This document shows, piece by piece, positions 4,484-58,936 of a DNA stretch of 64,000 nt; within the stretch, counting starts at the first letter, position 1; every line of letters begins with the position of its first letter. Made by a program: the position numbers and the translations under genes. The DNA comes from Eukaryota sp. GEM-RC1 (lineage: Eukaryota). Where the stretch lies: contig JAUFOQ010000002.1 in NCBI GenBank assembly GCA_040285855.1, forward strand, positions 3,100,001 through 3,164,000. The letters are read 5' to 3'. The notes beneath the pieces are model-generated. The model did not search any database, was not told where the DNA came from, and saw only the letters and a program-made list of their open reading frames with translations.

Positions 4484-4489
4484 TGAAAC

Positions 4490-5990
4490 TATCAAAATTA
4501 CCTATATTGTCCAATCTTTTCAAAATTAAATATAATTCAAATAAAACACACATACCAGTCTTTTCATCATTTTCCAAATACTCTTTCAAAACATGAAACA
4601 ATTCCACAAGCACATCACTACAATAACGTTCATCAACATTATCCCTATTAATCACATCGGTAATGTAACAGTTTCTTATTGTTTTCACTTCCATACTTGA
4701 TGCAGATTCAGATCCAATACAATCTAGTACATTATCGACAATTGACTGAATTCCAATAGTTAAGTTCACTCTCAATTGTTTTGAAGTAGCAACACGATCA
4801 TACTCCAAAATAGGCGACAATGATATTGTTTCATAAGTCACATTGTCAGTTTGTTGATATTCACATATGGAATCACTTTTTTCATTTTCAAAGCTTTCAG
4901 TCTGAACTTCCTTGAGACAAAATCGTTTTTCATCATCAATAAGAGGAAACACTTGGGAACTTTTTTCTTTCTATACCAGCACTGACATTCCTATTTAATA
5001 ATAAATTCTTCGTTGGAAAAGGGGTTTTCTTCAAACGGGGAAGTGATGGTAGAGTAATGTTGCCGCGTGGTAATTGAGGAAGTTTAGACTTTTTCACACA
5101 AATCTCTGGGGAATTTTTGTTAAAAATTGAGTCACAATTAATAAATTTGGGAGGAATATTAGTTTCATCTTCTTCAAGTTCATCATTTACAACAAAATCA
5201 TCTAAACTTGTTGAAATTGTATCACTGTCAGATTCATCACCAGAATCGGATCCTGATAGTAGTGCTTCTGTTTCAAATAAATTCGATTTTTCGAAATGAT
5301 TTTTGTCCAAGTCAATAATCTGATTATCATTATTTTCAATAATTTGTTCATCAACATTATCAACAATAACTTCATCAACAACTTCATCAACACAATGAAC
5401 ATCTTCAGGAACAACCACATCATCCATAATTGGTTCACTCGATTCTGCACAAAAGTTTACAAACAATGAATTAAAATGATTGAAATCTCGTTGAAGACAA
5501 TGTTGATTTCCCAAAACATACAAATCAATAGTGGATGGCTTAACAGGATGAAAAGTTGAATAATACCATTGATACAATTCCAAATTTGGTGCTGGATAAC
5601 TTCTTCCAATGCTTAAAATCTTTAAACTCCTCCAAGACCTAACCCTACTTAAGGTCACATAAAGTTGGGCATATTCCCAAAACTGAATAGCAACTTCAAT
5701 CCCGTCAATTGTTGAACCTTGGGATCGATGCACTGTTATCGCCCAGCAAGGTCTTAGCGGAAACTGAATTCTTTTCGCCACTTGAACAGGTCTTCCGATT
5801 TCGTTCAAGTGTTCGATAGCAAACCTTGACTGACTGATTCTTTTCGGTTCTGCTTCAGCGTTGAACCGAACATCAATATATGTATCTGAAAAATTAACAA
5901 TAACTCCTTTTGAACCATTAACTAGTCCAAGTTCAGGCTTATTTTGAGTGTACATCACTTGTCCACCAAGAACACAGTCAAGTTTTTTAA
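4490..5990 (-). pseudogene. 5'-truncated Pif1-family (SF1B) helicase, C-terminal part
   Basis: GGQVMYTQN...LVNGSKGVI, RIQFPLRPCWAITVHRSQGSTI and QLYVTLSRVRS are Pif1/Helitron-helicase motifs. Walker A/B region is absent; an acidic tail continues through a frameshift into 4490-4952. Confidence 0.85.
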
Positions 5991-6004
5991 TTTAAAACTT
6001 AAAT

Positions 6005-9501: not shown

Positions 9502-11288
9502 ATGTCTAAACGACATGCTTCAACAGAGGACGAACCTCAGAACAAGATAACCAACGATTTTGACGATGATTTTCTTCCTTTTGAGTATGAAGTCTTATCT
9601 GGCGATGCTGCTGCTTCTTTTCTCTCAGATCTTCCCGATCAACCTACCGAGACTCCTTCTACCTCAGAACCCTCCAACAGTGTCCGACTTGCATCCAAGA
9701 AGTCCAAAGAAAGAAAAAAGATCATTAAACAACCCAAAAACACTCTTTCCATGATCCACTCCACGTCAGCAGACGATACAGCATCTTCTTTCGACCTTCA
9801 GTCTTCCCAATGGTACACACAACTCTCACTTCACCCATCACTTTGCTTGTCTCTTCACCACCTCTCTATCAACACCCCCAACCAAGTACAGTTAGCTACT
9901 GTTCCTTTATTCTTTCAAGATCACGATATTGCTGTAGCAGCTGAAACTGGTTCCGGTAAAACCTTCGCCTTTGCTCTTCCTCTTATTCATCTTCTCTTGT
10001 CTGAGAAGTTTTCTCGTAAGGGACCTAATGTGGTGGTGATTGCACCTACTAGAGAATTGTCAACTCAGATCACTGATGTTTTTAAAGTTCTACTGTCATT
10101 TGATGACGCTTTAGCAAAGGAAGTTGTTTGTATTACAGGGGGGTTAGCTCATGAAAAACAAATTAAAATTTTGAACAAAAAAAGACCTAGAATAATTGTT
10201 GGAACTGTTGGAAGATTATTGGAAATTCTATCAAAAGGAATGAGTGATTGGTTGACTGTGGAAAAATTAAATTTTTAAAATATTTGATTATCGACGAAGC
10301 TGACAAATTTGTAAATTCGTTGGATTTGAAATCTTTCTTGGAGAACTTTACATCATCATTTCAAGTTGCTCTTTTCTCAGCTACTTTGGAGGATGAATCT
10401 AATGGAATTGAAAAACTGTGCACAAGGTTATCCATAAATTTAAAAAATCCACAATATTTAGATTTGAGAAGTTCCTTGGTGGTTTCAACTGTTCGCGAGT
10501 ACAAAATGAATGTTGTCTCTCAACAGAAGGATTTGTATCTGTATCAGCTACTTATTGTGTTGTTAGAGTATCTTCAAAATTTTAAAATTTTCATTTTCGT
10601 CAATTCCATCGACTTAGTTAAACGGTTAACCTCTCTTTTAAATCTTCTCCTACCCAACGTCACTGTCTTAGGCATACATGCTAAACTTCAACAAAAAAGC
10701 AGACTAAAAATTTTAGAGAAATTTTCAAATTCTAAAACTCCTTTTCTTTTAGTTACGACAGACGTCTCATCGCGGGGACTTGATATCGAATCAGTTGATT
10801 CAGTGATTCACTACTCGGTACCAAAGACATTGGACGATTACGTTCACAGAACAGGAAGGTCAGCACGTTGTGGAAAAGATGGATCGTCAATCATGTTGTT
10901 GACTCCCGAAGATTTTAAGGCCAAAATCAAAAATGATATTGATTTGATGAGTCTGACGGAGGTTCGTAAGGAACTTTTTCCAATAGTTATGAGTGAACAA
11001 CACACAGTCACCCTTTTAAGTGACAGATTTCGACTGGCAAAGGAAATTGAACAAATGTCGTTTTCATCAACAAAGAAACATATGGAACAGAAAGGAAAAC
11101 TGGCACAAATGGCCAAAGCGGCAGGTTTGGTTGATGAATCAGATGATGAGGACTCAAGAAGACAATCAAAAAAGATGAAGGTCAAATTACGTGAGCTCAA
11201 GCAATCACTTTCAGAATTGATTTCAATGCCATTGGAAGGACGTCGAAAAGGTTTTGTGGTTGTTAATGGTGGTTTAAATACTATTTAA
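9502..11288 (+). CDS. DDX24: DEAD-box RNA helicase, DDX24/MAK5-like (frameshift near 10270)
   Basis: AETGSGKT, PTREL, DEAD, SAT, RGLDI and HRTGRSAR motifs; ITGGLAHEKQ and IFVNSIDLVKRL...HAKLQQKSRLKILEKF resemble DDX24/Mak5. Confidence 0.8.
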
Positions 11289-21989: not shown

Positions 21990-22795
21990 TGAGTAATATT
22001 CCCAGACTATACAGCTTTCGATTAAACGTCGAAAGCTGGACCATAGATCTTCTTGAAAGCTTCTGGAGGAGTTTTCTTTGTTCTCAAGTCTTCTTGTTCA
22101 ACGCACTTTGTCAAGAACTTACTGCACCAGTCCCAGTTGGTCATTTTTGAAGGAAGAATCTCCGTAAGTAGTCTCAAGATGATCGCACTGGAAGTAAGTA
22201 GCGAGATAGAAGATGTCATAGACGTTGGTGTGACCGAAGAAAGAAGAACAAGAATAAGACGACACAGTGAAGTGAGAAGTAATTGGAGTTACTTCGAGAG
22301 TTGAAGTGTAGTTTTACATGGTCCAAGAATCAAAAGTCAGTAAGCTTTCCCTGTGAGTTTACTATAATGACATTCTGAGGTTTAATATCATGATGGACAA
22401 TTCCTTTTGAATGTAAGTAGGACAAGTTACTGGAATAATATGTTAAGAAAACTCAATTAACTTACTTGGAATAATATCCATATCTGCAGCCTTTTGATAC
22501 CAATTGAGTACACGTTTGTACATGATCTTTTTCGATTCCTTCTCCATTGAAACAGAATATCTGCTTGATATTTTTTCAATATTCCCAGACTATAAACGTC
22601 GAAAGCTGGACCATAGATCTTCTTGAAAGCTTCTGGAGGAGTGTACTTCGGAGTTACTTGGAGCGTAGATGTAGAGTTATACATTGTCCAAGAATCAAAA
22701 TCAGTAAGCTTTACCTGTGAGTTTACTATAATGACATTCTGAGGTTTAATATCGTGATGTACAACTTTTTTAGTAAAGATACTTTTATGGAACAA
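21990..22795 (-). pseudogene. Duplicated Ser/Thr protein kinase fragments
   Basis: HHDIKPQNVIIVNSQVKLTDFD...TPPEAFKKIYGPAFDVYSLGI in 22457-22795, with second broken copies at ~22300-22430 and ~21995-22075. Confidence 0.8.
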
Positions 22796-22816
22796 AATAA
22801 GTAAGATAAATACATA

Positions 22817-25800
22817 TTATTGCCCTACTAGGAAGTCTGCTTCAGATGATGCCAAGATTGCCGAAGTTGTTTTGTCTGTTGAGTCTAAACAGTCTGTTCT
22901 TGATTTCCAAGAGACTGTTTGTGAGCCTAAAATTAATTCATCAATTTCATTGACCTGTCTTTTTTGTGCTAAATCTGTTTCTGGGAAAAATAAATCCAAT
23001 CGTCCACTTCTTGTGTGTTTTGATTGTTCACCTATTGATGTATGTCGTCCACAATTTAGAATTCCTATCATGATATCTCCAATGGCGGCCGTTAATGTCG
23101 GGACTGCTCTTAGAAGTGTGACACAAATTTTACGTGGTGGAATTTGGAATCCCGCACCTTTTGGCGATATATGTTGTCAATTGTTAAGAAGTCCAATAGA
23201 AAAATTAAACCTGTTCTTAAGTCTCAAGTTAGTGATAAGTTTATTGCTAAAAGATTTCAAAATCTTGTTTTACGAGGTCAGTTTTCTTCTGCTTTGTCCT
23301 CCCTTAATCACACACTTCCAGCTGAAGTTTCTGTTGAAACTGTTGAAAAACTGAAAAAATTACACCCTGTTGAAGAATTTTCAGGCAATCCGGTTTTTGG
23401 TGAACTTTCCATGTCGTACTGGACTAACAAACCTGTTTTAGTTGATGAAATTTTACAATTAATTTCGTCATCCCCTTCTGGTCGTGCTGCTGGTCCTTCT
23501 GGTATGAGTTTTGATCATTTTAAAATTGCCGTTAATGCTGTTCCTGAAATTTGTGAAGATCTTGCTGTTTTCTTTAATGAAGTTTTATTAGGCACAAAGA
23601 AATTACCTCATGCTCTTTGCTCTTCTAGATTAGTGGCTTTAAGCAAACCAAATGGAGGTGTGAGACCAATTGCAGTGGGTGAAACAATTTCTCGTATTTT
23701 TTCAACTTTGTGCTTTAGGAGAGTCAGAGATTCCTCTGTTGAATTCTTTAGACCGTTTCAATTTGCAGTTGGAGTTCCTGATGGTACTACGTGTGCTGCT
23801 TTAACCTCTGATTTTCTTTTTCATTCAAATGAGGAAAATGCCATTTTGAACATTGATTTTAAAAATGCATTTAATTGTGTTTTAAGATCAACTATATCTG
23901 ACGAACTTTCTAAATTTTTTCCTCAGTTGATTCCCTATTTTAATATTTTTTATGGTAAAGCGTCGAATTTAATTTATGACAAGTTTGATATTAAATCAAC
24001 TAGAGGGGTTAAGCAAGGTGATCCTTTGGGTCCTTTTTTGTTTTGTCTCGCTCTGCAAAAATTATTTAAAATCTTACAATTAGAATTTCCAACTGTTAAA
24101 ATTTGTGCTTATGCTGATGATTCTTCGCTGATCGCTCCAGTTGACGTTCTCAAAAAGTGTTTTTCACGTTTCATCGAACTTTCTTTGAGTATTGGTTTAA
24201 CAATCAATTTTGATAAGTGTTTTCTTGTTGTTAAGTCTTCGAATGTTTCTAATCTTGGTTTTTGTAATATTCCTATCATCGATTATTCTACTCAATGTTT
24301 TCGTTTCCTTGGCACGTTTTTGGGAAATTTTGAGAAAATTCATTCAGAATTGGAGAGTTCATTAACTACAATTGAAGAAAAACTAAATCAAATATTATCT
24401 TTAGATGTGAGCAAACATGTTTCCTTTGCTATGCTTCAGGTCTGTTTTTCCGGGAAAATTAATCATTTTTTACGTTCATTAGACTATTCCCTTACTGAAA
24501 CATTTGCCAAGAAATGTAATTCTATTAGAACAAATTTTCTCTCTAACTTGGCTGAAATTGATGAGTCTAAGATTCCATTTCATGCTTTTTATTCTTCTGA
24601 ATTCGCAGGAGTAGGTTTCACCCATGCAAAAATCATTAGAAAATCTGCTCTTTTAGGAGGTGTTAAGAATTTTATGTTTGAATTTTTGAAACGGTTTCCC
24701 TTGGATGGAATCAATCTGTTGAATTCCAGTAATTGCCGTTGGATTCAATCTGCTAAAGATTTGTTATCATCTTTGTCTCCTGAAATGTGGGAATCTTTGT
24801 TCCCTGCTCATTTGAAGGAGACTCCTTTAAAAAATATTTCATCTCTACCATCTGCTGTATGTAAGCTGCAAAATAAATTGACAAGGAGTTTGAACTCTTG
24901 GACTTTAATAATCGTATTAGCTTGGCTAAAACTAATAGTCCCGAGTTCGCTGCTTTTTTAATCGATCTTTGTAATAGTGGACCTTCTGGATTTATTTCTC
25001 AAATTCCAAAGGTGTATGGATTACATCTATCTGATGAAGCTTGGATGATCAATATGCGTCTTCGTTTGGCTATTTGGCCTGCAAATTTATTAAACTATTC
25101 AACGTGCTCTTGTGGAGCTAATGGTGTTTTTCGTCATTTAATTAATTGTCGTTATTTTATTCATCTCCGTGCAGTAATTCATGATGGTGTACGTGATTCT
25201 TGTTATTCCATGTTTAAAGCACATGGTTTTCACTCTAAAGTTGAACCAGTTTTGAATCATCTTTCAGAAAATGAATTTACTGATCAAAAACGAGGGGATC
25301 TACATACTCCGTGGCTTAAATCGAGTCAAGCATTAATGGATTTTACTACAGTAGATGTATGTAACAAATCTTGTGTTAGTAGGATATTAGATTCTTCTTT
25401 TAATCCATTAACAGCAGCTGAAAAGCTCAAACACACCAAGTATGACTCTCAAGTAGAAGAATTAAATAGAAACTCATATTCCAAATTTGTGTTTCAACCT
25501 TTTGCTGTTTCTCTTTTGGATCTATTAGTCCTGCTGGTGATCAATTTTTCAAGGATTTCGAAGAATTGTGTAAAGAAAAGAAGCGTAAGTTTAGAATGGC
25601 TGAATGGAAAAACCGTATAGTGTTTTCCATATATCGAAATATGCCTTTCTATTTCTCTAGATTAATTGAGAAATTGTACAAGTTTGGTGTGAAGGTTCAT
25701 GTAGATAAACGTAATCTTTTACCGGGTGGTGATGAAGTCGTTTGGATTTAATCTTAGTATTATTTGTTTGTTTTTACAATTTCATAGTTTGTAGAAAGGT

Positions 25801-27921: not shown

Positions 27922-28918
27922 TTAATCTAGTTCGTCCAAATCTTCACCTTCATCAGGATTTGGTTCAGTCGCTTGTGTAATAAAAAAACTATCTTCCTCA
28001 TCTTCTAATTCTTCTACTGTGGCATCTTTTGGTGAGAACGGTTCTATAACAACCTCTTCTAGCTCTGGAAGGGCTTCCTCTTTGAGATCACCTATAGGCT
28101 CACTCTCCATTGGAGATGCCACGTCATCAGTGGTGACGTCATCAGACACGTCATCGGTATCATCTACAATGTTTGTGTTATTACAGAACTTCTCTCTAAA
28201 GGCTTGCATGTTCTGTTTATCTTTATCTAACTTCTCCACGCGCTGACGTTCTCTTTCTTTCTGCTCCGCCTCAAGTCCACCCTCTGCCCACGCCTTGACT
28301 AGCATCCTCTCAGCATCAAAAACAGGCCTATCATCAAGGTAAGTGAGATTGGGTAGAGTAGAGAGAAGAGTTTTTCTATAGTTTTCAATCTTTTTTTACT
28401 ACTGGGTTTCCGTTAAGATACAAGACTTTTAGATTGGGCATCTGCTCTAGGACTTCAATGATTCCCGTGTCGTCTAGAACGTTGTCAGAGAGATCTAGAA
28501 CGGATATAGAAGGACATTCGATTAAATGGCGGATGGAATCAGCGTCGGATAGTTGGTTCTTTTTGAGATGAAGAGCACGAAGGTTGGGAAGAGTGGAGAG
28601 GTTTTCAAGGTGAGAGACAAAGTTGTTACTAAGGTTGAGTTGATCTAGAAGGGAGAGATGAGAAATGTGATCAATTTTGGATATACAGTTTTCTTGAGCA
28701 TATAGACAGCGAAGGTCAGTCTGGGCAGAGAGGCCATTGAGTGATTTGAGACCATTTCCTTCAAGCCACAGTGATTTTATGGCAGTGTAAGGCTCCAAGT
28801 TATCAATTGCAAGAAAACCTTGATAATGAAGGTACATGACTTCATTTAAGTTAGGAGTAGTGTAGAGCTTCTGCTTTTTGCACAAGTCTCTGAGCAGAGC
28901 CGCAGTCATGACTGTCAT
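27922..28918 (-). CDS. DNAAF1: Dynein axonemal assembly factor 1 (LRRC50/ODA7), frameshift near 28390
   Basis: [43 protein letters not shown], LRRs, YRK...[20 protein letters not shown]. Confidence 0.92.
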
Positions 28919-30339: not shown

Positions 30340-32398
30340 ATGACTCTTCTACCCAGTGATAGAAAGGCAGCAGCCTTTTTCTTCTTCAGTTCTAGAGGGG
30401 ATTCTGACTCTGAAGGGGAACTCGAATCTCTTTCTTCCCTAGTTCTTCATGATGATCAAGTTTTTTCCTCTGCAGAAGAAGCTTCTGAATACGAACTCTC
30501 CGATCATGAAAACGATACTCCCGCTACTGCTAAATTCCTCCTCAGACCTAAATACGGTCGTGAGTATTTCTATAAGACTACTGATGATCGGGAAGCGGCC
30601 TCCAAAATTAAAGCCAAGCCCATCAAGCCGAAGAGAGAGGACAGAAAACCCACTGAAAAAACCACAATCACACCTTCTACACGCAAGGAGGAAGACCTTA
30701 TCCTTACCAGAGGTGATATCACCAAGAAACTGACCGAGATCCTCACGCTGCGTGGTAGGAAGTCCATCGATCGTAGAGAACAAGTCGATGCTCTAAAAGA
30801 ACTTGCCGATGTTGCCAAGAAACTGAAACTCCCCAGTCTAGAAGCCCACCTTAAACTACAAGTAGCCTCTGCTATCTTTGACATCATGGTCGGACAAGCC
30901 ACCATTGCCATGCCTAGAGATTTGTGGGGGGAAGCTCTAACTATGCTTAACGAAGCGCTTACCCTTGCCGACGAGAATCCCGTCATTGTCCTCGACTCCA
31001 AGCTCGTTGACACCGCCCCTACTGAAGATGTTGCTTTCTCCATGCATCTCTCCCTGTCCCCTTTTGTTACCAAGCTTGAGTACGAGCTGACCAAGGCTCT
31101 GCAGTTGGTAGACTATCGTGATGCAGAGGAGTATCAACAACGAGTTGATGACGAGCTGGAGTTTCTTAAACTGGCTGAAAGAGCTCAGGATTACTATCAT
31201 CGGAACGAGTTGTACAGTCACTGTATCCATTTGGCCCTGCGTCAACTGGAACACGTGTTTTTCCGAACTGATGACGAACATAGCCATTTGCTCATGTTCC
31301 CTCAATTTTGACCACTCAAAGGTTCAAAATGTGACGTCATTGATTGAGTCTTTGGTTAAGATGATCTTCTCCGAGTATCACTCTAAAACTAGAGATAAGA
31401 ATAGAGAGGAAGCAGATGATGAGTTCTATGCTATTACTAAGACTTCTCTGCTGTACGTGCATCATTTGGCTCTTTTAGGAAGGTTTAGAGAAGCTAAAGA
31501 TCGTTTATTGATGACTCATCTACATGAGAAACTTCATGATCCTAAATATCCCCTTTCAAATGATCATTCAATCAAAATGATTTACAATAGAGTTTTGACT
31601 GTGCTTGGTGTATCAGCATTTAGGAATGGTGAGTTCTATGATGCGGTTTCCCTTTTGTCAGATGTTGTTGGCTCTGGAAAAGCTAGGGAATTGACTTCTC
31701 AAGACTTCAAACTTCCTAAACATGCACCATATAATCAATTTTTAAAATTGGAGTTGATTGAAGTCGTGTTTCATTTGTCCGCTCTTTTGATTGAGATTCC
31801 GTTCACTGTTGGATCTAAGAACGTCACTGTTGCTCAATCCTTAATGACTCCTTCTATGCCTTCTCTCTTCGATTGTACTGATAGAACTAGAAGACCTTTC
31901 ACCAAGGTTTTTAGAAGATTAATGGGTATTGAACAGAGAGCTTTGTTCGCTACCCCACCAGAGTCGTCAAGAGATTGGACTGTTTACTTGGCTAAGGCTG
32001 TAGAAGAGGGAGAAGTAGGAAGAGCTGTGGAGATTTTGCAGAATTTAGATATTTGGAATAATATTGCTAATTCCGAAGAATGTCTGGAGCTGTATGAAAC
32101 CGAGCTTCGTGTAGCTTGTTTGTTGTGTTTTGTTCACAAATCTATTGCTCAGATTGAGTGTATTCCTTTGTCTTTATTGTCTGATATGTTTTTGATTTCT
32201 CTTGATCGATTGGTGACGTTATTTAGTCAGTTTATTGTGAAAGGATGGATTATAGGAAGGTTAATCAAAAATGATGGCCAATGGGTGTTAAAGTGTGGTC
32301 AGCAGCCGGCATCTGATCCTTTTGTCTTGGAGGTTTTCAATTTAGCTGAAAAAAGTAGTTTTTTGAAGGAGTTGTTACTGTCTGAGCCTTCTACATAG
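30340..32398 (+). CDS. EIF3C: Translation initiation factor eIF3 subunit c (frameshift near 31305)
   Basis: KKLTEILTLRGRKSIDRREQV, YELTKALQ.VD....EY..R..DE, AKDRLLMTHL, PPESSRD and PCI-like C-terminus. Confidence 0.88.
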
Positions 32399-34306: not shown

Positions 34307-34822
34307 TAAAGAACAAAAATAATTACACTGGTCATTCTGTTGTAATTAGACTATTTTACTTTTCGATTTTCGGGCATTAGAGATTTCCGGTGTCAAATTG
34401 GAGTGAATAATTGAACCACTATACTAGTAGGAAGGAAGTGAGAAATTTCTCTGTCATTAATCACAGTATAGCATAATATGCTAAGCATATACACTTTTCT
34501 TGGATAAAAAGTAACTTTTGATTACGCATTTAAACTAAATAAACTGCACTTTGAGAATTACTGTGATGCACACTATGTGCTTGATTTTGTTCTATAACCT
34601 AGTTTTACCAGTAAAAACTTGACTCATTTTTTGTGTATTATGATACTCAAAGAATATTATCGCATGTTAATGAAGAGATACGTGATGATACTGTTAGAAG
34701 ACGCAATCAAGAAGACCGCAGGTGTGTTTAACAAGTAATGTATACGGTTGTTTATTATATGATGATGATCGTCAGTACTACAATGATGAGCCGTCGTTGT
34801 CATTTATGGTCCAGAGACCATA

Positions 34823-35267
34823 CACTAATCACGGTAATTAGTCTCACGTGGTAGTTAGTCTCACTCAGACTAATTTTCTGTTGTAACACTTTTAACTAAA
34901 ACTCGATTGGAAATAAGTCTCACTTTTTGTAATAGAAAAGTTCTTTTCAACAAATAGAACAACCTTCGGCTAATACAAATGCTGAACCACGACGATGTTT
35001 CTTCTATTCCCCTACCAGTAGCATCTCCATTGATGTTTGTATTTACACGTCAAGAAATTGTTGGTCAGGACGTCGTTCTTTCAATAATGAGCGTATTATA
35101 GCACATCCTTCTGGTTGCCGAAGGTTAATGGTTTACTGGTTGGTTTATCCATCCTAATATGATTGTTGTGGAAGTATATCAAGCTGACGAATGCTCTGCT
35201 ATTCTATTGATCATTATGAATGAGAACAAAATTTGGTTGGATGTGAGACTAATTACCATGATTAGTA
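34823..35267. mobile_element. Tc1/mariner-type MITE
   Basis: 25-bp TIR CACTAATCACGGTAATTAGTCTCAC / GTGAGACTAATTACCATGATTAGTA (2 mismatches), flanked by TA on both sides. Confidence 0.8.
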
Positions 35268-35612
35268 TAGCCTGACAAACAATTGACATACTCTCATTTG
35301 TGATGTTATAACCATTGCATTACTTGTCGAATACAATATAAATTAAGTATTTTAACAATTGCCCTCATCGACTCCAAAGCACTCCCAGCAGTGAGTTTTC
35401 TTTTGGAGGACAAAACTACTTTAATGTCACAATGGATGCAGATTGAAAATCGAGTCTCTTGTATTCATTCAGGTTGAGTAATATAAATCTTGAAAAACAC
35501 ACACACAATAGTAAGAGTTGATCAAGTTTCGGCTTCAATTTTATTCATCAATTAGAAAATAACACCATATTTTGCGTATTTTCATCCCAAATAAAAAAAG
35601 AAGAAATATCAC

Positions 35613-36110
35613 TCACAAAAAAGTGCGATACCCAATTATGGATAAATGTGAAACATAAAAGAACCAATGATGTGGTACAAATCTACAGTGTACTAAACGT
35701 TCATTTGAAAAGTGATTTATATGATTTGGAGAAGAAACATAATCATCCGCTGTCCTTTTATTAGTGGGGAAAGCGGATGCAAAAGCGGGTGCGATTTTCT
35801 GGTAGAATCTGACATCGCACCCGCTGTCTTTGTCTAATGTTTCTTTCATTAAGTAGACTTTACTTCTTGGTGGTTGATTTTGATCCTTTCTGAGCAATCT
35901 TGCGTTGTTTCGCCTTGTGTGCATAAATTCGGCGGTTTGCATTCTTGCCAAACTTGGCAAAAGTACAGCCGTGATTGATGGGTTGTCCCCGAACCTTTTT
36001 GTTGCATCTGAAACAAAAGAATCCCATGAAATCAGCTCATTTATACACATAGTTTTGTAATTATAGAATAAATATTGTTTTCTGTTTTCCAATTTCACAT
36101 CATATACCAT
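35613..36110 (-). CDS. Hypothetical protein divergent from the 2A/Fanzor cassette
   Basis: 165-aa ATG ORF starting ~140 bp from the 36253 ORF; no recognised domain. Confidence 0.4.
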   Translation of the reverse strand: MVYDVKLENRKQYLFYNYKTMCINELISWDSFVSDATKRFGDNPSITAVLLPSLARMQTAEFMHTRRNNARLLRKDQNQPPRSKVYLMKETLDKDSGCDVRFYQKIAPAFASAFPTNKRTADDYVSSPNHINHFSNERLVHCRFVPHHWFFYVSHLSIIGYRTFL

Positions 36111-36252
36111 ATACTGTTAGTTACAATTAGTACGACATCAACTGTTATTGTATCAGTGACATATTCTCAAACTTGTCAAGATGTCAACATGTCAATGTAG
36201 ACATTAACCACAAATAGTTCAAACAGAAATTTAAGATCATTCGCTTAGTGAG

Positions 36253-37371
36253 ATGTCTATCGACTTTGTGTTGGTTAGATATCTCACTGTGCTTCGTCTC
36301 CCCCACTGTCAGGAGCCTTCAATGGGTCTTTTGATCCTCAGATCACTCCTTTGCTTGGTTTGTTGTCTTATCACTCAAGACCGTCAGGTCTTTATGAAGA
36401 TTTTCATGGGTCCCTCGATCCTCAAATCTCTTCTATTTCTTTTTTGTTTTTGTCTTATCACTCAAGACCGTCAGGTCTTTATGAAGATTTTCATGGGTCC
36501 CTCGATCCTCAAATCTCTTCTATTTCTTTTTTGTTTTTGTTATAGTACTGCATACTGTAGTGGTTCTTGTTGTGCTGGTTGCATTACAAAATCCAAAATA
36601 AATCTCCAGTCATCACAATTTCTCCGTGATTTGACTATGGACGGGGACATTGAGTCTAATCCTGGACCCGATCTAATTGAAAATCATTCCAATATTGATT
36701 CTTTGCTACCTCATAGTTGGTTATGGACCACTATTGTAGACTTTTATGGACAGTACATTACTGAACATAGTGTTAAATGTTCATATCTCTCGTGTGAAGC
36801 ATTGTCACTTGCAATTACAGAGGACAATTTGGCTGAAGAAGAAAGAGATCGTTGGCATCTTCACAAACTATTTCAAGACACCTTAGATTTGATGAATTCT
36901 TTCAGACCACCAACCAAACAATATTTGTTTATTCCAATAAACGATGGTATCTTTAATAATGAAGCTACTCACGGGACTCTGTTGATTTGTGATATTAAGA
37001 GAAAAAGATACTATTCCCTTGATCCAATGTTTACTCAAAATCAACATCAAAAGTTTTCAGATACTTTAGGTCGTTGCGAAGATGTTATTAGACAATTTGA
37101 ATATGATGCTCTAGAAATGAGGAAAAGGATTTTGAATCTCATCATTGACACTCACACTGGTCAACATCGATCTGTTGCTCAACAAATTTTAAATTCAATC
37201 TTGTCTGGAGAAATTGTACAACAAACAATCGAAGTTCAACAAACAACTCAAGTTTCTACTGGTAGAAGAAAGACACAATGTCCCAAAACTAATCAACCTG
37301 CTGGAAAAGAAATAAATCTTCTGACACTTCTGAAAGAACTACACGTAAGTCATCTCGTCGTAAAACTCTAG
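36253..37371 (+). CDS. Polyprotein part 1: hydrophobic leader - 2A peptide - Ulp1/SENP8-like (C48) protease domain, degraded
   Basis: RDLTMDGDIESNPGP, then LLPHSWLWTTIVDFYGQYI and YLFIPIND...THGTLLICDIKRKRYYSLDP, matching C48 protease architecture; no QxNxxDCG catalytic Cys motif seen. Confidence 0.65.
   Translation: MSIDFVLVRYLTVLRLPHCQEPSMGLLILRSLLCLVCCLITQDRQVFMKIFMGPSILKSLLFLFCFCLITQDRQVFMKIFMGPSILKSLLFLFCFCYSTAYCSGSCCAGCITKSKINLQSSQFLRDLTMDGDIESNPGPDLIENHSNIDSLLPHSWLWTTIVDFYGQYITEHSVKCSYLSCEALSLAITEDNLAEEERDRWHLHKLFQDTLDLMNSFRPPTKQYLFIPINDGIFNNEATHGTLLICDIKRKRYYSLDPMFTQNQHQKFSDTLGRCEDVIRQFEYDALEMRKRILNLIIDTHTGQHRSVAQQILNSILSGEIVQQTIEVQQTTQVSTGRRKTQCPKTNQPAGKEINLLTLLKELHVSHLVVKL
36364..36540 (+). 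repeat. Perfect 87-bp in-frame tandem duplication
   Basis: CLITQDRQVFMKIFMGPSILKSLLFLFCF encoded twice (period 87). Confidence 0.95.
36613..36669 (+). other. 2A-like ribosome-skipping (StopGo) peptide 1
   Basis: SQFLRDLTMDGDIESNPG/P fits the D(V/I)ExNPG-P consensus. Confidence 0.85.
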
Positions 37372-37989
37372 AAGTAACTAATAAAATTTCGTCAAGTTAT
37401 TCTTCTTCATCTGACACATCCGTCAAAAACTCTAAAGCACGACGGCTAGAACGGAAACCAAAAAGTGTCATTCGTCAGTAATTCATCGTCCTCAAGAACA
37501 AGGTTCTAAACGTCAACAGAGACTGTATGATTTAAGTTGGGAAAAGTAGTAAGGTGAAGATGAATTGAGGAAGTCTAGGTCATCATCATAGTCACGTCTG
37601 AGCTCTACTCCTGTAACTAAATGAGAAAATCCAAGAATATCTTCAACTTCAAAGGAATCGTCAACATGTAGGAAAACAGATGACACAGCTGCTTTAAAGA
37701 GGGAAGCGATGGAAGTAAGTTGAGGAAGATCTTCAGGCAACATAGGAAACGTTGTAGTTTTAAAAAACACATTGGTTGATTGTTGTATGGATTCACTGAA
37801 ACGGTGACTGACTTGGCTAACCGGAAGAATACGGGCAAATCATGTATCAAGTGTTTGAAAGGACTATCAGGGGAAACGACATCCAACTCTAGAGAAGATC
37901 GTAAGTGACGTTTAAGCCACCGTGTGATTACAAAGATTAATAAGGACTTTTCTAGGTAAATTGGTATGAATTTTGGATGATTTAAAGAT

Positions 37990-40900
37990 GTGGATTGTGT
38001 ACCAATGCCTCAATCTCAATGGAAACGGAATCTCGCAGAAGATGGAGATGTTGAGACTAATCCCGGACCTCGCAATTCTCATGATCAATCTAGTGGTTGT
38101 ACAAAATTTCCAAAAACTGACGAAGAATGTCAAAGTTCGCAAGTAGTTGAAGGTTCAACTGGTTCTTTGAATGAATTTGAGGAAATTCCAGTTGTTAAAG
38201 GAAAAAAGGAAAAAGAATCAAGAATTCCATTTATTGACATTGCAACTGATACTGTTGTCGATGACTCCCTTCCTACAGTTTTTATAATTGATATTGAAAC
38301 AAGAAATATCAATGAGAGAATTCCTACACGAGTGAACAAAGAATTGAATGAACATCGTAGAACGGAAAAAGAGTCTTTGAAACAGAGAAGATTGTTAATG
38401 AATGATTTTGAGAAAGAAGCTCACGACCTTGATTTTCTCGCAGATCAACAAATCATCATGATCTCTGTCATTATTGCAAAATTGCAATCCAACGGTGAAT
38501 TACAATTTGACAACTCAATCGTCCTTTACACTGACTACAACTATAAAATCAAATTCAGTGAATCAGAAACACCAGCTTTTAAATTAGATCTTTTGGACTT
38601 CCCAAATGAAAACGAATTATTGGTTAAGTACGCTAATATTGTTAATCAATATAAACCAAATGCTTTTATTGGACATAATATTTTCAATTTTGATTTGCCC
38701 ATAATTGACAATAGAATGTGGGCTCTTGACCTTCCTCTTTTAACTAACCCAATTCCAATTCAGTTACCTTTACATAGTAGATGGCTGGATATCATAAAAG
38801 ATCACAATGGTTTTACAGTTTTGGATACCTTCATATTTGCAAAGAAGTATATTGGTCTCAAGTATGGTTGTAGTCTAGCTAATTTATCTTGGAATTTACT
38901 TTCTGAACCCAAATTGAAATTGGATAAAGACTTGGATCACTTACTCCCAGTTGATTGTTTAAGAAATGATAAAAGAATGAAAACTTTAATCAACTACTGC
39001 CTTCATGATTCAATTTTGGCGTTTAAATTGTTTATTTTATTTCAAAAAGACAAAATTGTTTTTCAATCATGGGCTTCTATTAAAACATCAGTTGTTAGTG
39101 TGGTAAAACATCAAGAAGTTCAAGATGCCATGCTTTTAGGATCTCAGTTTTACAATGCTTTAAGACAACAGACTACAATGTGTGTTAAAGAATATCTGTT
39201 GGCTCGCTATCGTCTTGGACAAGATTTGTCTAAGTTTGATTACAAGTTGTTTTATCATACAATGCTTTCAATTAGAAATCTTTCATCTGAAGTTCATGGA
39301 TTCAAAATATACAACAATTATCCTATATCAACAATTGATACAGATCTTCGTGATTTTGTTACTGGAGAAGGAATCTATACTGCCAATTCAAACTACCCCG
39401 GATATAAGCACTGTGTTACTGATACATTTGGCCAATGTCATATACCAGAACTGGATTTTGATCACATCAGTAGAGCTTTTGAATACACTACTCAGTATGA
39501 AATGTGGCCTGCGTTTGAACTAAATATTCGTCGCAATTATGAGTTGTACATTAAAAGATTTATCAATACAGTAATGGGTAAGAAAGAGTTTGAAAAGGGA
39601 ATGAAAGAGAGTCGTAATTTAGTTTTAGGTCCAGAACTTGCAGGACTAACAGGACGTGAAGCTCAAAAGTTCACTAGTTACTTCAGATTTCGATTAAAGA
39701 TGTTGAAAGACCAGATTTTGTATCGAGCTAGAGATGATGCCTTACACTACATTAATTCTTTTAACTCTGCCACTCACCCTGAAAATGTTAAGTTTATTGA
39801 TGAAGTTTCCAAAGTTTTTGATGATGATTTCAGTATGTTAATATTTGAACAGGTTAATTCTCTAATGGCTGATAAAATTCCAGAATTACTTCAAAGATTT
39901 AACATCATATTTCCTACTTCAATCACTACTAACGACAATGAAACTGTAGACGTTCATAATTTACTTTACACAGTTCAGGAGTATCCACTTCATTTTCTAA
40001 GAAATTCTCTTCAAATCTCAGATTACTTGGAATCCAAGGGTGCTAAGTTGTATAATGTAATTCCTTTAAGTTTAGAGAATACTCCTTGTTTTTTCCCAAT
40101 AGATACCAGAACTCTTTGGGGACTGGCTAAGCACTGTTTTGGATATAAGAATAAAGATAAGAAGATTGGTCCTTTACATTCAAAAGTGACTAATTACATG
40201 TCTGCTGATCAGATTAAAAACTTGACCCATTCTCAACAACAGGATTACTGGAAAAGATGGTTTAACTATGATGACAGAAGTTTTCACAAAGCCAATTTTG
40301 AATTCAACAACTATGCTGTAACTGATGGAATTTCGATTTGTTTTCAATTTGTGAGAAAGGATTTGAAAGGAATGAAATGTAAACCTGATTCAAGTAAAGC
40401 TTCAGTAAAAGTACAATATTTCAATGAATGTGATAGGTCTGATTTTTTATTTCTAAACAAATGGTTTATGTGGACATTGGAAAGAGAGATATGCTACAAC
40501 TTGCATCTAAATCAAATAGGGAAACTCAAAATCCTCTAAAGAAATACAACTTCTTACGATTGACATATGCTGAGTGGTCTAGAGTTTCAAGAAAGCATAA
40601 AAGAATCCACCAGTACCTTGTTAGAAGGAGATCAGGTACTACTACCGTGAGAGCAGGTGATGATATTCCATTAACTGTAACAATGAAAATTGAGAAATGG
40701 AACACTTGGTTAAGTGAAGAACAGAATTCTAAAACTGTTAATTACAATAAATTTAGAAAGTTTATTCTGGCTAAATGCATTCACTACAATGCAACTAAAG
40801 ACTTCTATGATTTGCATATATGGAGGATTCACAAAATCCAAAATCATGTCCATAAGCAAAAGACAGAGTCTAAATTGGTTAACAGCATTGTAAAAACTTT

Positions 40901-41353
40901 CGGTAGTCGTGACAAAATTGTACTATGTATTGGTGATTTAGGTCAGAAACCAATCACCAACTTAAAACACAGTCCACCATCCAGAACTAAGACTTGGACT
41001 TCATTCTTTCAGAGAAACGGTTTTTTAACAGTGATGAATGATGAGAGAAACACTTCGTCCAAGTGTCCAGAATGTCATGAAGATGTTTTTGAAACTTCTA
41101 TTGAGGTTGTCAACCCAAAGCCCAAATCAAGAGAGAAGAGAGAATGGATTCACCCACATGGCTTACTAGAGTGTAAGAGCAAACATTGTCTGGGAGAAGT
41201 CAAGAAGCGATTGAAGGGGAAAAGAAAGGGTACACAGTGCCCAGTCAAATGTATTGGAATCGAAACAAGATGGCTTGTTTGAACATGATGAACATGTTCG
41301 AGCATTGGATGAGTGGTAGTGATGAGAGAGTAGAGTATTTGTGTAGAAATTAG
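37990..41353 (+). CDS. 2A - PolB-type DEDDy 3'-5' exonuclease fused to Fanzor1 (frameshifts near 40450 and 41225)
   Basis: ExoI IIDIET (38290), ExoII GHNIFNFD (38671-38694), ExoIII YCLHD (38995-39009). In the same ORF follow Fanzor motifs NIRRNYELYIKRFIN, LYNVIPL...PIDTRTL and TDGISICFQFVRKDL; then RuvC-I VYVDIG (40473), IGDLG, DERNTSSKCPEC (E 41043), HGLLECKSKHC, and YWNRNKMACLNM...RVEYLCRN* (41249-41353). Confidence 0.88.
38014..38070 (+). other. 2A-like ribosome-skipping (StopGo) peptide 2
   Basis: SQWKRNLAEDGDVETNPG/P fits the D(V/I)ExNPG-P consensus. Confidence 0.85.
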
Positions 41354-41363
41354 CTTTATTTTT

Positions 41364-41446
41364 GTTAGCTGGCTGGTGAAACCCGGCCATATTTGGTTAA
41401 TTCCATGAAATGAATGAATTGACGAGAATCAAATCTTCTTGTTGAC
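41364..41446 (+). ncRNA. Candidate Fanzor omegaRNA scaffold (locus 2)
   Basis: Starts 10 nt after the stop. Closing stem GTTAGC/GTTGAC encloses hairpins TGGCTGG-TGAAAC-CCGGCCA (41370-41389) and GTTAATTC/GAATTGAC (41396-41423). Confidence 0.55.
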
Positions 41447-41890
41447 TTTGCCTCTAAAACTAGTATTAAGGTTCGAATATGACATAGAGGTTTATAAGGT
41501 AAAAGGAAAAGAGAATTCTAATGGTAAATAAAGCTAATAAATCAACACTGGTCTTCTCTCTTCTTCTTCAGTGTTTTGGAAATAATTCAAAATTTTGGAA
41601 AATAAGAAGATAGGTTACTTCTTATTACGTGGAGAAGAACGTTTAGGGGACTTCTGGTTCTTAATAAAGTCAAAGATTAGAATCAAATCCTCTAGATTTT
41701 TTTCGTGTTAGTACGATATTCTTCCTGAGATCCTTTTACAGTCAATAGTTCACGATACTCTTAAATTATCAGTAAATTAAGATAACAGAATAACAACTAA
41801 ATAACAACATTTGCAAAGTGATTTCAAATTTTTGGAAACACAGTTGATAACACTTTAGGAGTTTACTAAATACAATATTTGTATCGGCGA

Positions 41891-42403
41891 CAGTGTTCGA
41901 AGACACGCGTGGACACGTTTGGACACGCAGACACGTTTGGACACGGACACGGTGTCTTTTGAAAAACACGCAAAAAGACACGCAAAAAGACACCGCGTAT
42001 GTACGTGTTTTTCTGCAAAAAACCTAGAAAACTTCGAAAGTACCCTTTTATTTCCCTCAATATTGTTCGACTTGAATGTTTTTCTATATGCTATACCACA
42101 ACAGACTGCAATGCCAACAGAAAAGTGGCCAAAATACTGACATGATGCGTTGTCAAACAAACCTGGAACACAATTCAACTCAACAGAACCACAGAATCCC
42201 AGATTCAGTGATGGGATGTCAGATAAAGGCCAGAATTGGCCCAAAACAATGTTTTCATAGTCAAACTCTGTGTAGTTGACGAGAATTTTTTTTGAAAAAA
42301 CACGCAAAAACACCCAAAAGACACATCAAAGACACCGTGTGGACACGCGTGTTAACACCGACACGGTGTCTTTTAAAAAACACGTGGGAAATTTCGAACA
42401 CTG
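41891..42403. mobile_element. hAT MITE
   Basis: TIR CAGTGTTCGAA...TTCGAACACTG; 8-bp TSD ATCGGCGA (41883-41890, 42404-42411); GACAC subterminal repeats. Confidence 0.93.
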
Positions 42404-42915: not shown

Positions 42916-44000
42916 TTACTGAACAACTGCTCCACTAACAAAACGTTCACTGTCTAAATAAGGCGATTGGAAATATTCGTATTGTTTCCACCCACATCTG
43001 TTAAAGATTGAGGTACAATCAATATTCATGTTCACTATGACACGTTGCAAAATTGAAATTGTGTCATTAATTGTTCTTGGTGGATGATGAAAAGAAGCAT
43101 CCGCTACTCTGTTTCTGAACTGTTTAAAGAACATTTCAATTGGATTGTTCTCAGGAGTGTAAGGAGGGAGTATACGGTATTTTATACCGCAGTGGTGGTT
43201 AAGTGCTGCTTCAAGTGCAGGAGATCGATGAATGGCACACCCGTCTAACACCCATTTCGATCGAACACCATCATTATCTTGTACAAAACCTCCTAAGATT
43301 AAATCTGTTATAAAGCTCATGTATTGTAATCGTGAAAATGTCCTTTTGTATATGATGGAGTACATAACCATTTACATCTATGGCTACTATCAGACATACA
43401 GTTTCATCCATTTGAGGGGCTGGTGGAGCTGCTACGGGTGTTCCAACAGGAGAATATCCATACTGCCGTTGAAAATGGCAAGGAGTAAATGAGAGTTCAT
43501 CAATAAAGAGAAGTTGCGGTAGAAGTAAGATACCAAAGTCGGTTTGTAGTCGGTACTGAAAGCTGGTTATCAGTCTTAACCGAGCTTTGTACATCAAAGG
43601 AACACATTTCTTATGACTTAAACCATTTTTAATTATGATCCTTGGAAGCAGTTGATTTCGATATAAGAATGTCAAAAGTTGAGTAGATATACTGTTGTAG
43701 TTCGCGCAGGTAGATGTGAGGATTGTCAATGACCCAATCAACCACGGTTTTCACTTGTACTTCTGTCAGAATACGGCTAGTGCGTGTGCAGACAATTTCA
43801 TCATCAGTATCAGACATCATCTCAGTCTTCCATCGGCTAATGGTTGATTGACTGACGTGATAAAAGAACGCGATGTCATTTTGGGTGAGACCATGAAGTA
43901 GTAAGCAACTCATAGCTCTTGCTTTAGTATCAGGGCTGGCTTGAATCTTAGAAGACAAGATTTCATGTCCATTTAAGACATGGGAGTAATCAAATCCCAT
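42916..44000 (-). mobile_element. IS630/Tc1-mariner superfamily transposase, DD35E, frameshifted
   Basis: HTH (LTQNDIAFFYHVSQSTISRW; NPHIYLRELQ), LLFIDE, VLDGCAIH...LPPYTPENNPIE with 35 residues between D and E; spread over three overlapping frames; TIRs not found. Confidence 0.88.
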
Positions 44001-44142
44001 TATTTAGACAGATTCAGCTTATCAGAGAAGATGGAAACTTTTTGGGAAAAGGGAGAAAATGGGGCAAAAGAAAAACCGGAATATTTACCAGAATTAAGAC
44101 CCACTGTCTGATTCAGTTAACTTATTTTCCACTCTAACATCC

Positions 44143-57139: not shown

Positions 57140-58936
57140 TTGCCAATGTCGTGTACTCGTTTCTGCAGCGCTGCTGCATTCTTCCAGGAACGTGCACGGG
57201 CTTCAATTGTTGAAGACGTGGCCTTCTTAACAAAGGCAGCTTACTGGACGTCTCTCTTTGTCCGTAAGTTTCTCCACCAATTCCCCGAATTGGGTAGTTG
57301 GGCCACAACTCATGACTTCTGGGTCACAGCATTTGATTTCATGCTGAAGACCAATCCCAGATCTAGGGCCCAGTTCCAGGACAAGCCAAACCGGCATCCT
57401 GAAGTCTTTGCCGCCTTCTGGCAGACCAAATCTGCTTGGCCATACGGGGTGCTAGCCGGCCAAGTTGATGCTCAACTGGTATCAGCTCGGGCGAAACAAT
57501 TGGCCCAGAATCACCGCCAGATTCTGACTGACGGACCAGTGGTGTGGTCAACCAATTGGTTCCACACCATGGCTCAGTTACGAGGATGTCCTGTCCCAAA
57601 GGCATACTCAAAAGCCTGTGTTGGGACCAGCTCCTTTCCTCCATCCGTGCGTCAGTGGGTAGGGTCCAACCACCAAAGACTTCTAGAAGAATTTATCAAC
57701 TGTCTTGGTGGACCCGCTGCCTACTCACAGTGGCTTGAGATCCTCTCCAGTCGGTCTTTGCTGTTGAGTAGCGAGAAGGCCTCGTTTATATCAACAAGAG
57801 GTCTGAGATTGCTCTCCTACTTGGAAGCAATAGCTCCCGTGCTCATGAAGCGCAATAGGCTCTCACCTATTGCGTCTTTTGTACCAGGGATGATCACCCT
57901 CAGCGAACAGACCCTGGCTCGATACTGCCGCCTAAATGATACTAGGGCCTTAATGATTTCTCCATATGAAAAGCACCACGAGAAGCCTTCCAGATATCCC
58001 ACGTGGGCCATGTCTACTAATGGCCTCAGTGTTTATGTTTCCTTTCAACCAAAGGTTCGTCTGAAACGACGACGAAGAACCAAAGCCGAAATGGAGGTGG
58101 CTCGTGATGCAGGCAGCATTGATGATTTTCGCCCTAGAGAAGTAAATCGAAAAAAGAATCTTAAAGGCAAAATCCCAAGACGAAATTGGCAAGAGGTTCC
58201 AGATGATTCTTGGCCTCAAAACCCAGTTGATCCTTTCTTCGTTGCCATCGACCCCAACCACAAGAACTTATGTGGTTGGACTGCAGGGGTAACTGATCCC
58301 GATGGACCACAACACTCAGGTCTCCTGCTGAACCCTAAACCAGAAGAATGGGTTCCTGAACGCACGATTACTCAGCTGAGTGCTGATGTGTACCTTGCTC
58401 AAGACTTCGACCAGTACTTGTTTGAGATCACAGCTACACGTGAAAACCTGGGGAATCAGTCTATTGTTGACTTTCACCTAAGTCAGGGCCTTGTTTGGGA
58501 GCGTCGAAGACGAAAGTTCGATTTTTTGATAAGAAAACAACAACGATTAGACAATTTTGTTGTAAAGATAGAGAAGCTAGCCGAAAACAGGCCTGTTTAC
58601 ATTTGGTTTGGAAAAGGAGGAGATGGAGCATCACGCCAGGCTGTCAAGAGTCCAAGAACATGGTTTCTGAAAGCTCTGAAAACTCGATTTGATCATGTAA
58701 AGATGGGAGATGAATACTATACATCAGCTAAAGTGGCTTGTCACCGTCAGTTTGGAAGGAAACTTCGTGTACTTGTGAATGGAAATATGAAGACTCTGTA
58801 CACCCACTTTCAATGTCCGGTATGCTCTTTAATTTGGTCTAGGGACATTTCAGCGTCCATCAACCAGTGGTACATCGCTCTGGAGGAATACTATCACAAT
58901 AGTAGGCCGATAGAGTTTCGACGTCCACATAGATAA
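57140..58936 (+). CDS. Intact Fanzor (TnpB-like RNA-guided endonuclease), ~598 aa
   Basis: TNGLSVYVSF; RuvC-I VAIDPN (D 58250); YIWFGKG; RuvC-II GDEYYTSAKVACH (E 58712); FQCPVCSLIWSRDISASIN (D 58844); terminal RPIEFRR. Confidence 0.9.
   Translation: MPMSCTRFCSAAAFFQERARASIVEDVAFLTKAAYWTSLFVRKFLHQFPELGSWATTHDFWVTAFDFMLKTNPRSRAQFQDKPNRHPEVFAAFWQTKSAWPYGVLAGQVDAQLVSARAKQLAQNHRQILTDGPVVWSTNWFHTMAQLRGCPVPKAYSKACVGTSSFPPSVRQWVGSNHQRLLEEFINCLGGPAAYSQWLEILSSRSLLLSSEKASFISTRGLRLLSYLEAIAPVLMKRNRLSPIASFVPGMITLSEQTLARYCRLNDTRALMISPYEKHHEKPSRYPTWAMSTNGLSVYVSFQPKVRLKRRRRTKAEMEVARDAGSIDDFRPREVNRKKNLKGKIPRRNWQEVPDDSWPQNPVDPFFVAIDPNHKNLCGWTAGVTDPDGPQHSGLLLNPKPEEWVPERTITQLSADVYLAQDFDQYLFEITATRENLGNQSIVDFHLSQGLVWERRRRKFDFLIRKQQRLDNFVVKIEKLAENRPVYIWFGKGGDGASRQAVKSPRTWFLKALKTRFDHVKMGDEYYTSAKVACHRQFGRKLRVLVNGNMKTLYTHFQCPVCSLIWSRDISASINQWYIALEEYYHNSRPIEFRRPHR

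Follow-up and report, generated by a model that had tools for sequence, protein, structure and literature searches.

Two 2A/StopGo motifs ahead of a C48 protease and an exonuclease-Fanzor1 fusion in a probable multi-copy cassette of Eukaryota sp. GEM-RC1

Introduction

Cellular StopGo sites have been reported mostly from retrotransposons and from a few host genes. We analysed a stretch of 64,000 nucleotides from Eukaryota sp. GEM-RC1 (contig JAUFOQ010000002.1, positions 3,100,001 to 3,164,000 of the forward strand; hereafter the window), for which an earlier note made from the sequence had described two full-consensus 2A/StopGo motifs 1.4 kb apart in a DNA-element context. The locus raises the question of what such motifs serve in a place where no reverse transcriptase (RT) adjoins them. 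The explanation that we favor, and regard as probable, is that they are conserved 2A peptides of a multi-copy Fanzor1 cassette that is itself likely mobile. As read from sequence, this cassette comprises two motifs selected at the protein level, three domains of which two are fused, further copies, and a layout that recurs in distant relatives.

Two 2A motifs in two open reading frames

A six-frame scan of the window located the cores of both motifs, which are given here together with their longer forms.

36625-36669, + strand: core of motif 1, RDLTMDGDIESNPGP
38026-38070, + strand: core of motif 2, RNLAEDGDVETNPGP
36619..36669, + strand: 2A/StopGo motif 1 in its longer form, FLRDLTMDGDIESNPG/P, with the predicted skip between 36666 and 36667
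38020..38070, + strand: 2A/StopGo motif 2 in its longer form, WKRNLAEDGDVETNPG/P, 21 residues after the ATG at 38005

The motifs lie 1401 nt apart on the same strand (+), and SQ-F-L or SQ-W-K precedes each of them, so that their positions, their spacing and the common upstream SQ pattern are as the earlier note had described. No other NPGP or ExNPG was present in the six frames of the whole window; with a chance expectation of 3.6e-5 for D[VI]ExNPGP in these frames, the claim that two chance matches are very unlikely was borne out. Over 19 codons, 4 are identical between the motifs, 8 differ synonymously and 7 non-synonymously. Twelve of the 19 residues are common to both, and given that 8 of these 12 use different codons, the likeness is held at the protein level. 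The synonymous differences also rule out a recent DNA duplication of one motif. In motifs 1 and 2 alike, the core D(V/I)ExNPGP is in frame with the downstream open reading frame (ORF). The two ORFs are distinct, motif 1 lying in ORF1 (36235-37371) and motif 2 in ORF2 (37981-40539), and approximately 610 nt lie between them, in which each of the three + frames contains stops; this rules out a single polyprotein across the window. At the sequence level, both motifs are confirmed as real 2A signals under selection on the protein.

StopGo class and predicted skipping

We compared the motifs with upstream motif 4 of PMC12846837, which is described there as DLTxDG with a W-V-(R/K) lead and nearly 100% skipping; class B of PMC12338488 is a related class. 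In motif 1, RDLTxDG-DIESNPGP is present in full, including the class-preferred D at p12 and S at p15, whereas motif 2 retains the W, the R, the L and the DG at their expected positions. Distant relatives of the window proteins carry an E-to-H change in the 2A core, which is a tested active variant in the account of PMC12846837. Motif 4 was defined in RNA virus proteomes, whereas the window motifs are chromosomal and stand beside DNA-acting enzymes. In supplement file 3 of PMC13405545, ATEWLRDLTKDGDVESNPGP, which shares 14 of the last 17 residues with motif 1, is classed as skipping; the exact peptides of motifs 1 and 2 were not found in the supplement text of PMC13405545 and PMC12338488. By analogy with these peptides, Gly-Pro skipping by the window peptides is likely, and the findings suggest that StopGo functions on metamonad-type ribosomes.

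Most of the retrotransposon 2A-like peptides tested in one study lowered protein abundance (bioRxiv 10.64898/2026.06.17.732966), and skipping at motif 2 in the window copy would free a peptide of no more than 21 residues, which begins with the ATG at 38005. The peptides might accordingly not split proteins at all, but stall or drop ribosomes to keep levels low, or might now be inert. We consider this scarcely credible, given that the lowered-abundance class is tied to poly-leucine helices, which the window peptides lack, and that the closest tested motif-4 peptide skips (PMC13405545).

H-variant motif-4 2As were also seen ahead of unknown proteins on metagenome contigs (L117:1009-2361, L070, L087, L092, L093, L097, L099, L116 and L119), and one of these contigs contains an MLLE domain (E 5.9e-22).

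Leader and C48 protease of ORF1

In ORF1, motif 1 stands between a repetitive leader and a cysteine protease.

36247..36288, + strand: strong hairpin that lies just before the first ATG (36253) and overlaps it; z -4.1 for 36170-36400
36322..36540, + strand: 87-nt tandem repeat in 2.6 copies, encoding a hydrophobic, Cys-rich ORF1 leader
36670..37371, + strand: C48/Ulp1-type cysteine protease, damaged; Pfam E 0.0036 in the window copy
37372..37980, + strand: spacer between ORF1 and ORF2, Ser/Lys/Arg-rich, with stops in all + frames

The number of leader repeats differs among the relatives P0018, P0022 and P0027, and the leaders of P0034, P0037 and P0130 consist of other, unrelated tandem repeats; the leaders are thus hydrophobic tandem repeats with no kinship between families. 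The window repeat is open in a second frame as well (36279-36545, +), where the diverged copy differs at several synonymous positions; codon usage in this frame is slightly above that in the ORF1 frame, and either may be the true leader frame. The region of the hairpin at 36247 had the lowest z (-6.9) in a folding scan of 70 windows of 200 nt with 25 shuffles each. An Rfam scan of the leader and this hairpin gave no match of note and no ribozyme, and the hairpin is possibly a left-end or 5' leader structure.

The protease of the window copy has lost parts of its active site: HW reads HG at 36970-36975, and the QxxxDCG cysteine motif is gone with an in-frame gap of 59 residues at 37098/37099, which looks like real decay. 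In contrast to the window copy, intact relatives have HW, D and QxxxDCG, that is, a His-Asp-Cys triad with an oxyanion Gln. The triad is intact in P0017, P0023, P0024, P0025, P0027, P0019 and P0034, and Pfam C48 was detected with E 8.6e-11 in P0017 and E 2.9e-21 in P0034. A PDB search with the protease gave weak matches (E 0.04-0.07).

The search for protease relatives yielded 7 clusters among 135 candidates, one being the window's own and six being labelled Eukaryota sp. GEM-RC1, and the clusters with this label hold 20 named members. Thirteen of these 20 reach the protease N-terminus, the other 7 starting downstream of the motif site; D(V/I)ExNPGP is kept in 12 of the 13, and the remaining one reads NLGP. 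Between subfamilies (P0016/P0034 and P0034/P0022), 15-16 of 16 motif residues are identical, the 40-residue flanks being 20-42% alike. Leaders and cargo are mixed, with leader A accompanying protease A or C and leader B or C accompanying protease B. P0034 and P0019 represent a related family with two C48 domains in tandem behind one 2A.

The ORF1 stop at 37371 is common to P0017, P0023, P0024 and P0025. The spacer beyond it has a weak codon-usage signal that moves between frames, and is possibly a decayed coding linker or a lost ORF2 leader.

Exonuclease-Fanzor1 fusion of ORF2

The earlier note had placed a new domain behind each motif. This proved correct for the C48 protease after motif 1 and for an exonuclease that starts approximately 73 codons past motif 2; the identity of the downstream protein as a Fanzor had been missed.

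38263..39050, + strand: PolB-type (family B DNA polymerase) 3'-5' proofreading exonuclease; Pfam PF03104, E 4.5e-14
39051..41353, + strand: Fanzor1, in frame with the exonuclease; its relative P0011 matches SpuFz1
41327..41560, + strand: structured stretch across and past the Fanzor stop; z -3.4, 0 of 200 shuffles as low

The exonuclease has the PolB fold and intact DEDDy motifs, namely ExoI DxE (DIET, 38290), ExoII NxxxFD (GHNIFNFD, 38671) and ExoIII YxxxD (YCLHDS, 38995), and no polymerase domain follows it. Its profile matched Pol delta (E 1.2e-8), and its structure model, built from 7 sequences with a predicted local distance difference test score (pLDDT) of 86, matched PolB structures with a best E of 4e-10 in PDB. 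A single-sequence fold prediction (pLDDT 38) was discarded, and a search of ESM Atlas gave no usable match.

Among viral models, the best match to the exonuclease model was the PolB of a pithovirus (E 7.8e-12). Given in addition that Fanzors have been described in large DNA viruses (PMC3627910) and that virus contigs often contain motif 4 (64 stretches), the cassette might be taken for what is left of a large DNA virus, once endogenous, or of a Polinton-like element. We regard this as very improbable. Host genes and other transposons surround the cassette, and neither a capsid nor a packaging ATPase nor a polymerase domain was seen. Viral contigs yielded no relative; metagenome contigs contained no related locus either. 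A degenerate motif-4 pattern detected 128 loci in collections of viral and metagenomic sequence, most of them long polyproteins. Apart from the 2A itself, these loci had no match to the exonuclease, the Fanzor or the protease, with the exception of a weak one at L090 (E 5e-4, no Pfam domain).

In the window Fanzor, the RuvC-I D is at 40473 (DIG), the RuvC-II E at 41043 and the RuvC-III N at 41264 (WNRN). The RuvC-II E stands six residues before a C4 zinc finger, the corresponding motifs lying at 41043-41075 and 41166-41189. The intact relative P0011 matched SpuFz1 (8gkh) with E 8e-16 and PpFz1 (9cf0) with E 7.4e-15, and it reads through two frame breaks of the window copy, one in a T run near 40443-40447 and one in a purine run near 41216-41245. 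Both breaks fall within homopolymer or purine runs, and the frame of one host gene of the window is broken in like manner in an A run, so that assembly errors may account for them. Host genes change frame at 28385-28395, 31112-31311 and 10248-10275, at least one of them in an A run, which suggests small assembly indel errors or very short introns.

The fusion of exonuclease and Fanzor comprises approximately 1,100 amino acids in all, and is continuous in P0011, P0014 and P0040. The Fanzor cluster has 18 members; among the 15 listed, one is the window's own and 14 are labelled Eukaryota sp. GEM-RC1. With these and the protease relatives, close copies of both genes are numerous in a single named metamonad genome, and the window copy is a damaged member of a multi-copy family.

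Both the window Fanzor and P0011 have DIG and RN in place of the usual RuvC-I DPG and RuvC-III RD, with the catalytic D kept. RN at RuvC-III is clade-wide, and DPG at RuvC-I is kept in P0040-P0043 and P0045. A quick, midpoint-rooted tree of the RuvC regions covered 58 sequences. Of 152 candidates, 54 had been left out for lack of the motif or of length; the tree took 13 sequences with the label N and, from the 85 with the label D, the 45 that scored best. Ten WNRN Fanzors formed one branch in this tree (SH-aLRT 99), the three other N rows being scattered. WNRN could be read as inactivation, but the active D-to-N forms in PMC11423790 rule out a dead Fanzor on this ground: as reported there, GtFz1 with N at RuvC-III cuts, and SpuFz1 D606N cuts better.

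The fold at 41327..41560 is not unique, four other windows of the folding scan having z -3.8 or lower, one of them inside coding DNA. Because other windows fold as well or better, a 3' guide RNA remains a candidate; by its position, the stretch is a candidate omegaRNA scaffold.

Recurrence of the layout in relatives

A search with P0011 gave 757 matches at E 0.001, of which the best 150 were examined. P0040 contains the whole exonuclease-Fanzor at 34% identity (1281 amino acids), without a 2A, and the fusion is kept across 26-52% identity. P0130 unites in one ORF a leader, WKKDLTVDGDIHPNPGP, a C48-like protease, an exonuclease and the N-part of a Fanzor. Its protease has HW and QxxxxDCG; the C48 call comes from the alignment, with no Pfam score at E 0.05. 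In P0056, WIKDLTADGDVHKNPGP is followed by an exonuclease. The 2A cores of P0130 (DGDIHPNPGP) and P0056 (DGDVHKNPGP) are both of the E-to-H variant, and these two proteins were the sole 2A-like matches among the best 150 of 757. When the first 140 residues were compared with longer proteins, one of 200 candidates matched, P0037. Here a repeat leader and the motif-2 peptide stand ahead of another protein, which has a weakly scoring CCHC knuckle (Pfam E 0.042). In P0027, the 2A-protease is joined to sequence matching 40103-40186 of the window; since it joins both, the protease and Fanzor genes are linked in a second copy. Close relatives are known as proteins only, not as genomic copies.

The two genes might instead be separate mobile or captured units with a common promiscuous 2A leader, adjoining by nesting or chance, the protease family being a repeat in its own right. 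Their ORFs are distinct, with an ORF1 stop common to four other copies; leaders and cargo are mixed combinatorially; and, to judge by their locus tags, most of the Fanzor and protease copies listed are not neighbors. These tags are weak evidence, however, as the repeat gene models are incomplete, and both P0130, as one ORF with 2A, protease and exonuclease, and P0027, with protease and Fanzor sequence joined, argue for one unit. We find separate units improbable.

Retroelement machinery, ends and mobility

As the earlier note had claimed, no RT or apurinic/apyrimidinic endonuclease (APE) adjoins the motifs. The closest RT lacks NPGP.

23114-25617, + strand: nearest upstream RT, 11 kb away; RVT_1, E 3.2e-20

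It is part of a frameshifted retrotransposon without long terminal repeats (non-LTR; 22758-25617, +) that combines zinc fingers at the N-terminus with RT and a restriction-like endonuclease (RLE), and that we take to be CRE-like from its motifs.

The leaders and 2As could also stem from a non-LTR retrotransposon, in which case the cassette would be a non-autonomous element derived from a long interspersed nuclear element (LINE); 2A and cysteine protease would form its 5' module, the exonuclease-Fanzor would have been captured instead of its RT, and an RT in trans would copy it through RNA. A CRE-like RT lies in the same window, the 5' leaders are tandem repeats, P0037 has motif 2 ahead of its CCHC knuckle protein, and Ulp1 domains occur in NeSL-type LINEs. 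Cellular 2As are described as lying mostly in the N-termini of LINE ORF1p/ORF2p, in some cases together with a cysteine protease of the Josephin or OTU type (bioRxiv 10.64898/2026.06.17.732966), L1Tc being one case (PMC5814959), and one Fanzor1 clade is placed near LINEs in PMC10530073. A LINE origin of the leaders therefore stays live, given P0037 and the known LINE layouts of leader, 2A and cysteine protease. Pfam scans of P0017, P0022, P0034, P0037, P0056 and P0130, however, detected no RT, APE or RLE; the window RT is without NPGP; no poly(A) tail is visible past the Fanzor stop; and Rfam scans gave no HDV-like ribozyme. An RT with APE or RLE and a 3' A-tail are thus absent from the cassette, which would still be compatible with mobilisation in trans; we judge its derivation from a LINE to be rather unlikely.

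With regard to the DNA-element context, the earlier note was right in that the cargo is DNA-acting or accessory and not retroelement machinery; its reading as a DNA transposon is tentative, no transposase being encoded inside the cassette and no terminal inverted repeats (TIR) or target-site duplications (TSD) standing out above chance. In the search of the flanks, conducted on one copy only, the longest exact direct or inverted match was 10-11 nt, which is at chance level. A Tc1/IS630-like transposase gene lies downstream (42916-44011, - strand), in three frames, with helix-turn-helix and DDE_3 domains; imperfect inverted repeats of 22 nt are located at 42950 and 43990. Because of these candidate repeats of its own, the gene (42916-44003) was rejected as the transposase of the cassette. 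Hairpins were detected near the 5' side of the cassette, at 36247 and at 35745. The latter are two adjacent strong hairpins at 35745-35845 (z -4.2), 400 nt upstream of ORF1, that belong to no Rfam family and may represent a small RNA or the end of an element.

Several observations weigh against the cassette being a conserved and mobile 2A-Fanzor1 unit. It has no transposase inside and no ends were found. Motif 2 was reached by 0 of the 14 other Fanzor members listed, so that the 2A-exonuclease arrangement in close copies is known for the window alone. Among distant proteins with ExoI, 2 of 5 have a 2A: P0040 and P0047 have upstream sequence without one, P0052 begins at ExoI, and P0130 and P0056, which have one, stop short of RuvC. 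The identical 2As across protease subfamilies could derive partly from recent recombination rather than selection. With respect to motif 4, F replaces the signature W in motif 1, a change that class B tolerates at a reduced level (PMC12338488), and NLA replaces DLT in motif 2 (NLAEDG, a two-residue variant). A eukaryotic peptide ending DLCVDGDIHPNPGP is listed as non-skipping in the supplement of PMC13405545, and the 2A core alone is therefore insufficient. The window Fanzor has DIG at RuvC-I, where Fanzors nearly always have DPG according to PMC10711439. Finally, an engineered 5' exonuclease fusion, with an exonuclease of a different enzyme class, lowered SpuFz1 editing as described in PMC13434818, and a benefit of the exonuclease fusion is thus not a given.

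Proposed mechanism

If the cassette operates as we favor, ribosomes would skip the Gly-Pro bond at each 2A, freeing the C48 protease and the exonuclease-Fanzor from their variable hydrophobic leaders with a defined Pro start, and probably also rationing the amount of enzyme. The Fanzor, guided by RNA from the 3' end of the element, would cut DNA with a D-E-N site like that of GtFz1. The fused exonuclease may then trim 3' DNA ends at the cut, shaping repair at empty or excision sites in favor of copying back or retaining the element. The protease would strip SUMO or a ubiquitin-like tag, countering host silencing or turnover, and the cassette would move by means of a transposase supplied in trans. 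The 2A would also mark the place at which families trade leaders and cargo genes.

Taken further, and only tentatively, the findings would describe a lineage of mobile elements of eukaryotes whose design resembles a small viral polyprotein, with swappable leaders, 2As as the junctions for exchanging cargo genes, a SUMO protease and a D-E-N Fanzor with its own 3'-5' exonuclease, and which spreads without an RT of its own. As part of that lineage, an active D-E-N Fanzor with its exonuclease might possibly constitute a natural cut-and-trim RNA-guided editor.

Comparison with known systems

With the Fanzor1 proteins SpuFz1, PpFz1 and GtFz1, as described in PMC3627910, PMC10432273 and PMC11423790, the window protein has in common the RuvC-I D, the E six residues before the finger, the C4 finger and its multi-copy state. 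The D-E-N triad is that of GtFz1, the 3' flank is structured, and no transposase is present inside, as for Spu-1. In contrast to these systems, the cassette has an N-terminal PolB exonuclease fusion, a 2A leader, a linked C48 protease and DIG at RuvC-I, and no inverted repeats were found in its flanks.

The 2A-bearing LINEs (L1Tc/ingi, CR1, L2, Crack and Dualen/RandI) likewise have an N-terminal 2A after a short or hydrophobic leader, and sometimes a cysteine protease module (Josephin or OTU in Dualen/RandI). In the window, no RT or APE follows, the protease is of the C48/Ulp1 type, the cargo is an exonuclease-Fanzor, and the 2As belong to the DLTxDG class, whereas those of the LINEs belong to a leucine-rich class.

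Ulp1 occurs in MULE, Zisupton and Ginger elements. An accessory SUMO-type protease or DEDD nuclease on a mobile element is a feature common to the cassette and to DNA transposons that carry Ulp1 or DEDD; the cassette differs in having a PolB-type DEDDy exonuclease fused to Fanzor, no transposase in cis and expression based on 2A. DEDDh nucleases are recorded for P and piggyBac transposons in PMC3627910.

The best-ranked matches of a literature search included no 2A with a Fanzor, no Fanzor with Ulp1, no exonuclease-Fanzor fusion and no StopGo in a DNA transposon, and passages of the Fanzor surveys PMC3627910, PMC10711439, PMC10530073 and PMC10432273 mention neither a 2A-Fanzor nor a natural exonuclease-Fanzor fusion. 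Each part is known in kind, and the combination appears to be new. A conserved StopGo in a Fanzor element without RT widens the known cellular use of these peptides. Given that the exonuclease predicts a specific fate of cut ends, the natural fusion provides direct access to the unsettled question of the role of Fanzors in their elements; it is also a candidate ready-made nuclease-exonuclease editor.

Other features of the window

Upstream of the cassette, a MITE-like element (miniature inverted-repeat transposable element) at 34821-35269 has 27-nt inverted repeats that are 93% complementary. Downstream of the Fanzor, ACACG-rich repeats at 41900-42384 form two blocks 414 nt apart. A second Fanzor-like ORF of 598 amino acids (57140-58933, +), with DPN, EYYTS and WSRD, is apparently intact and contains a TNB domain (E 0.0006); it was rejected as a copy of the 2A family, no significant match having been obtained. 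At 4293-8227, a helicase C-terminal fragment (4939-5991, -) with weak matches to UvrD_C_2/SH3_13 is accompanied by a Fanzor-like zinc-finger fragment (7697-8227, +) and by short-repeat arrays at 3808-4485 and 6684-7391; this region is possibly a Helitron-type element with a Fanzor.

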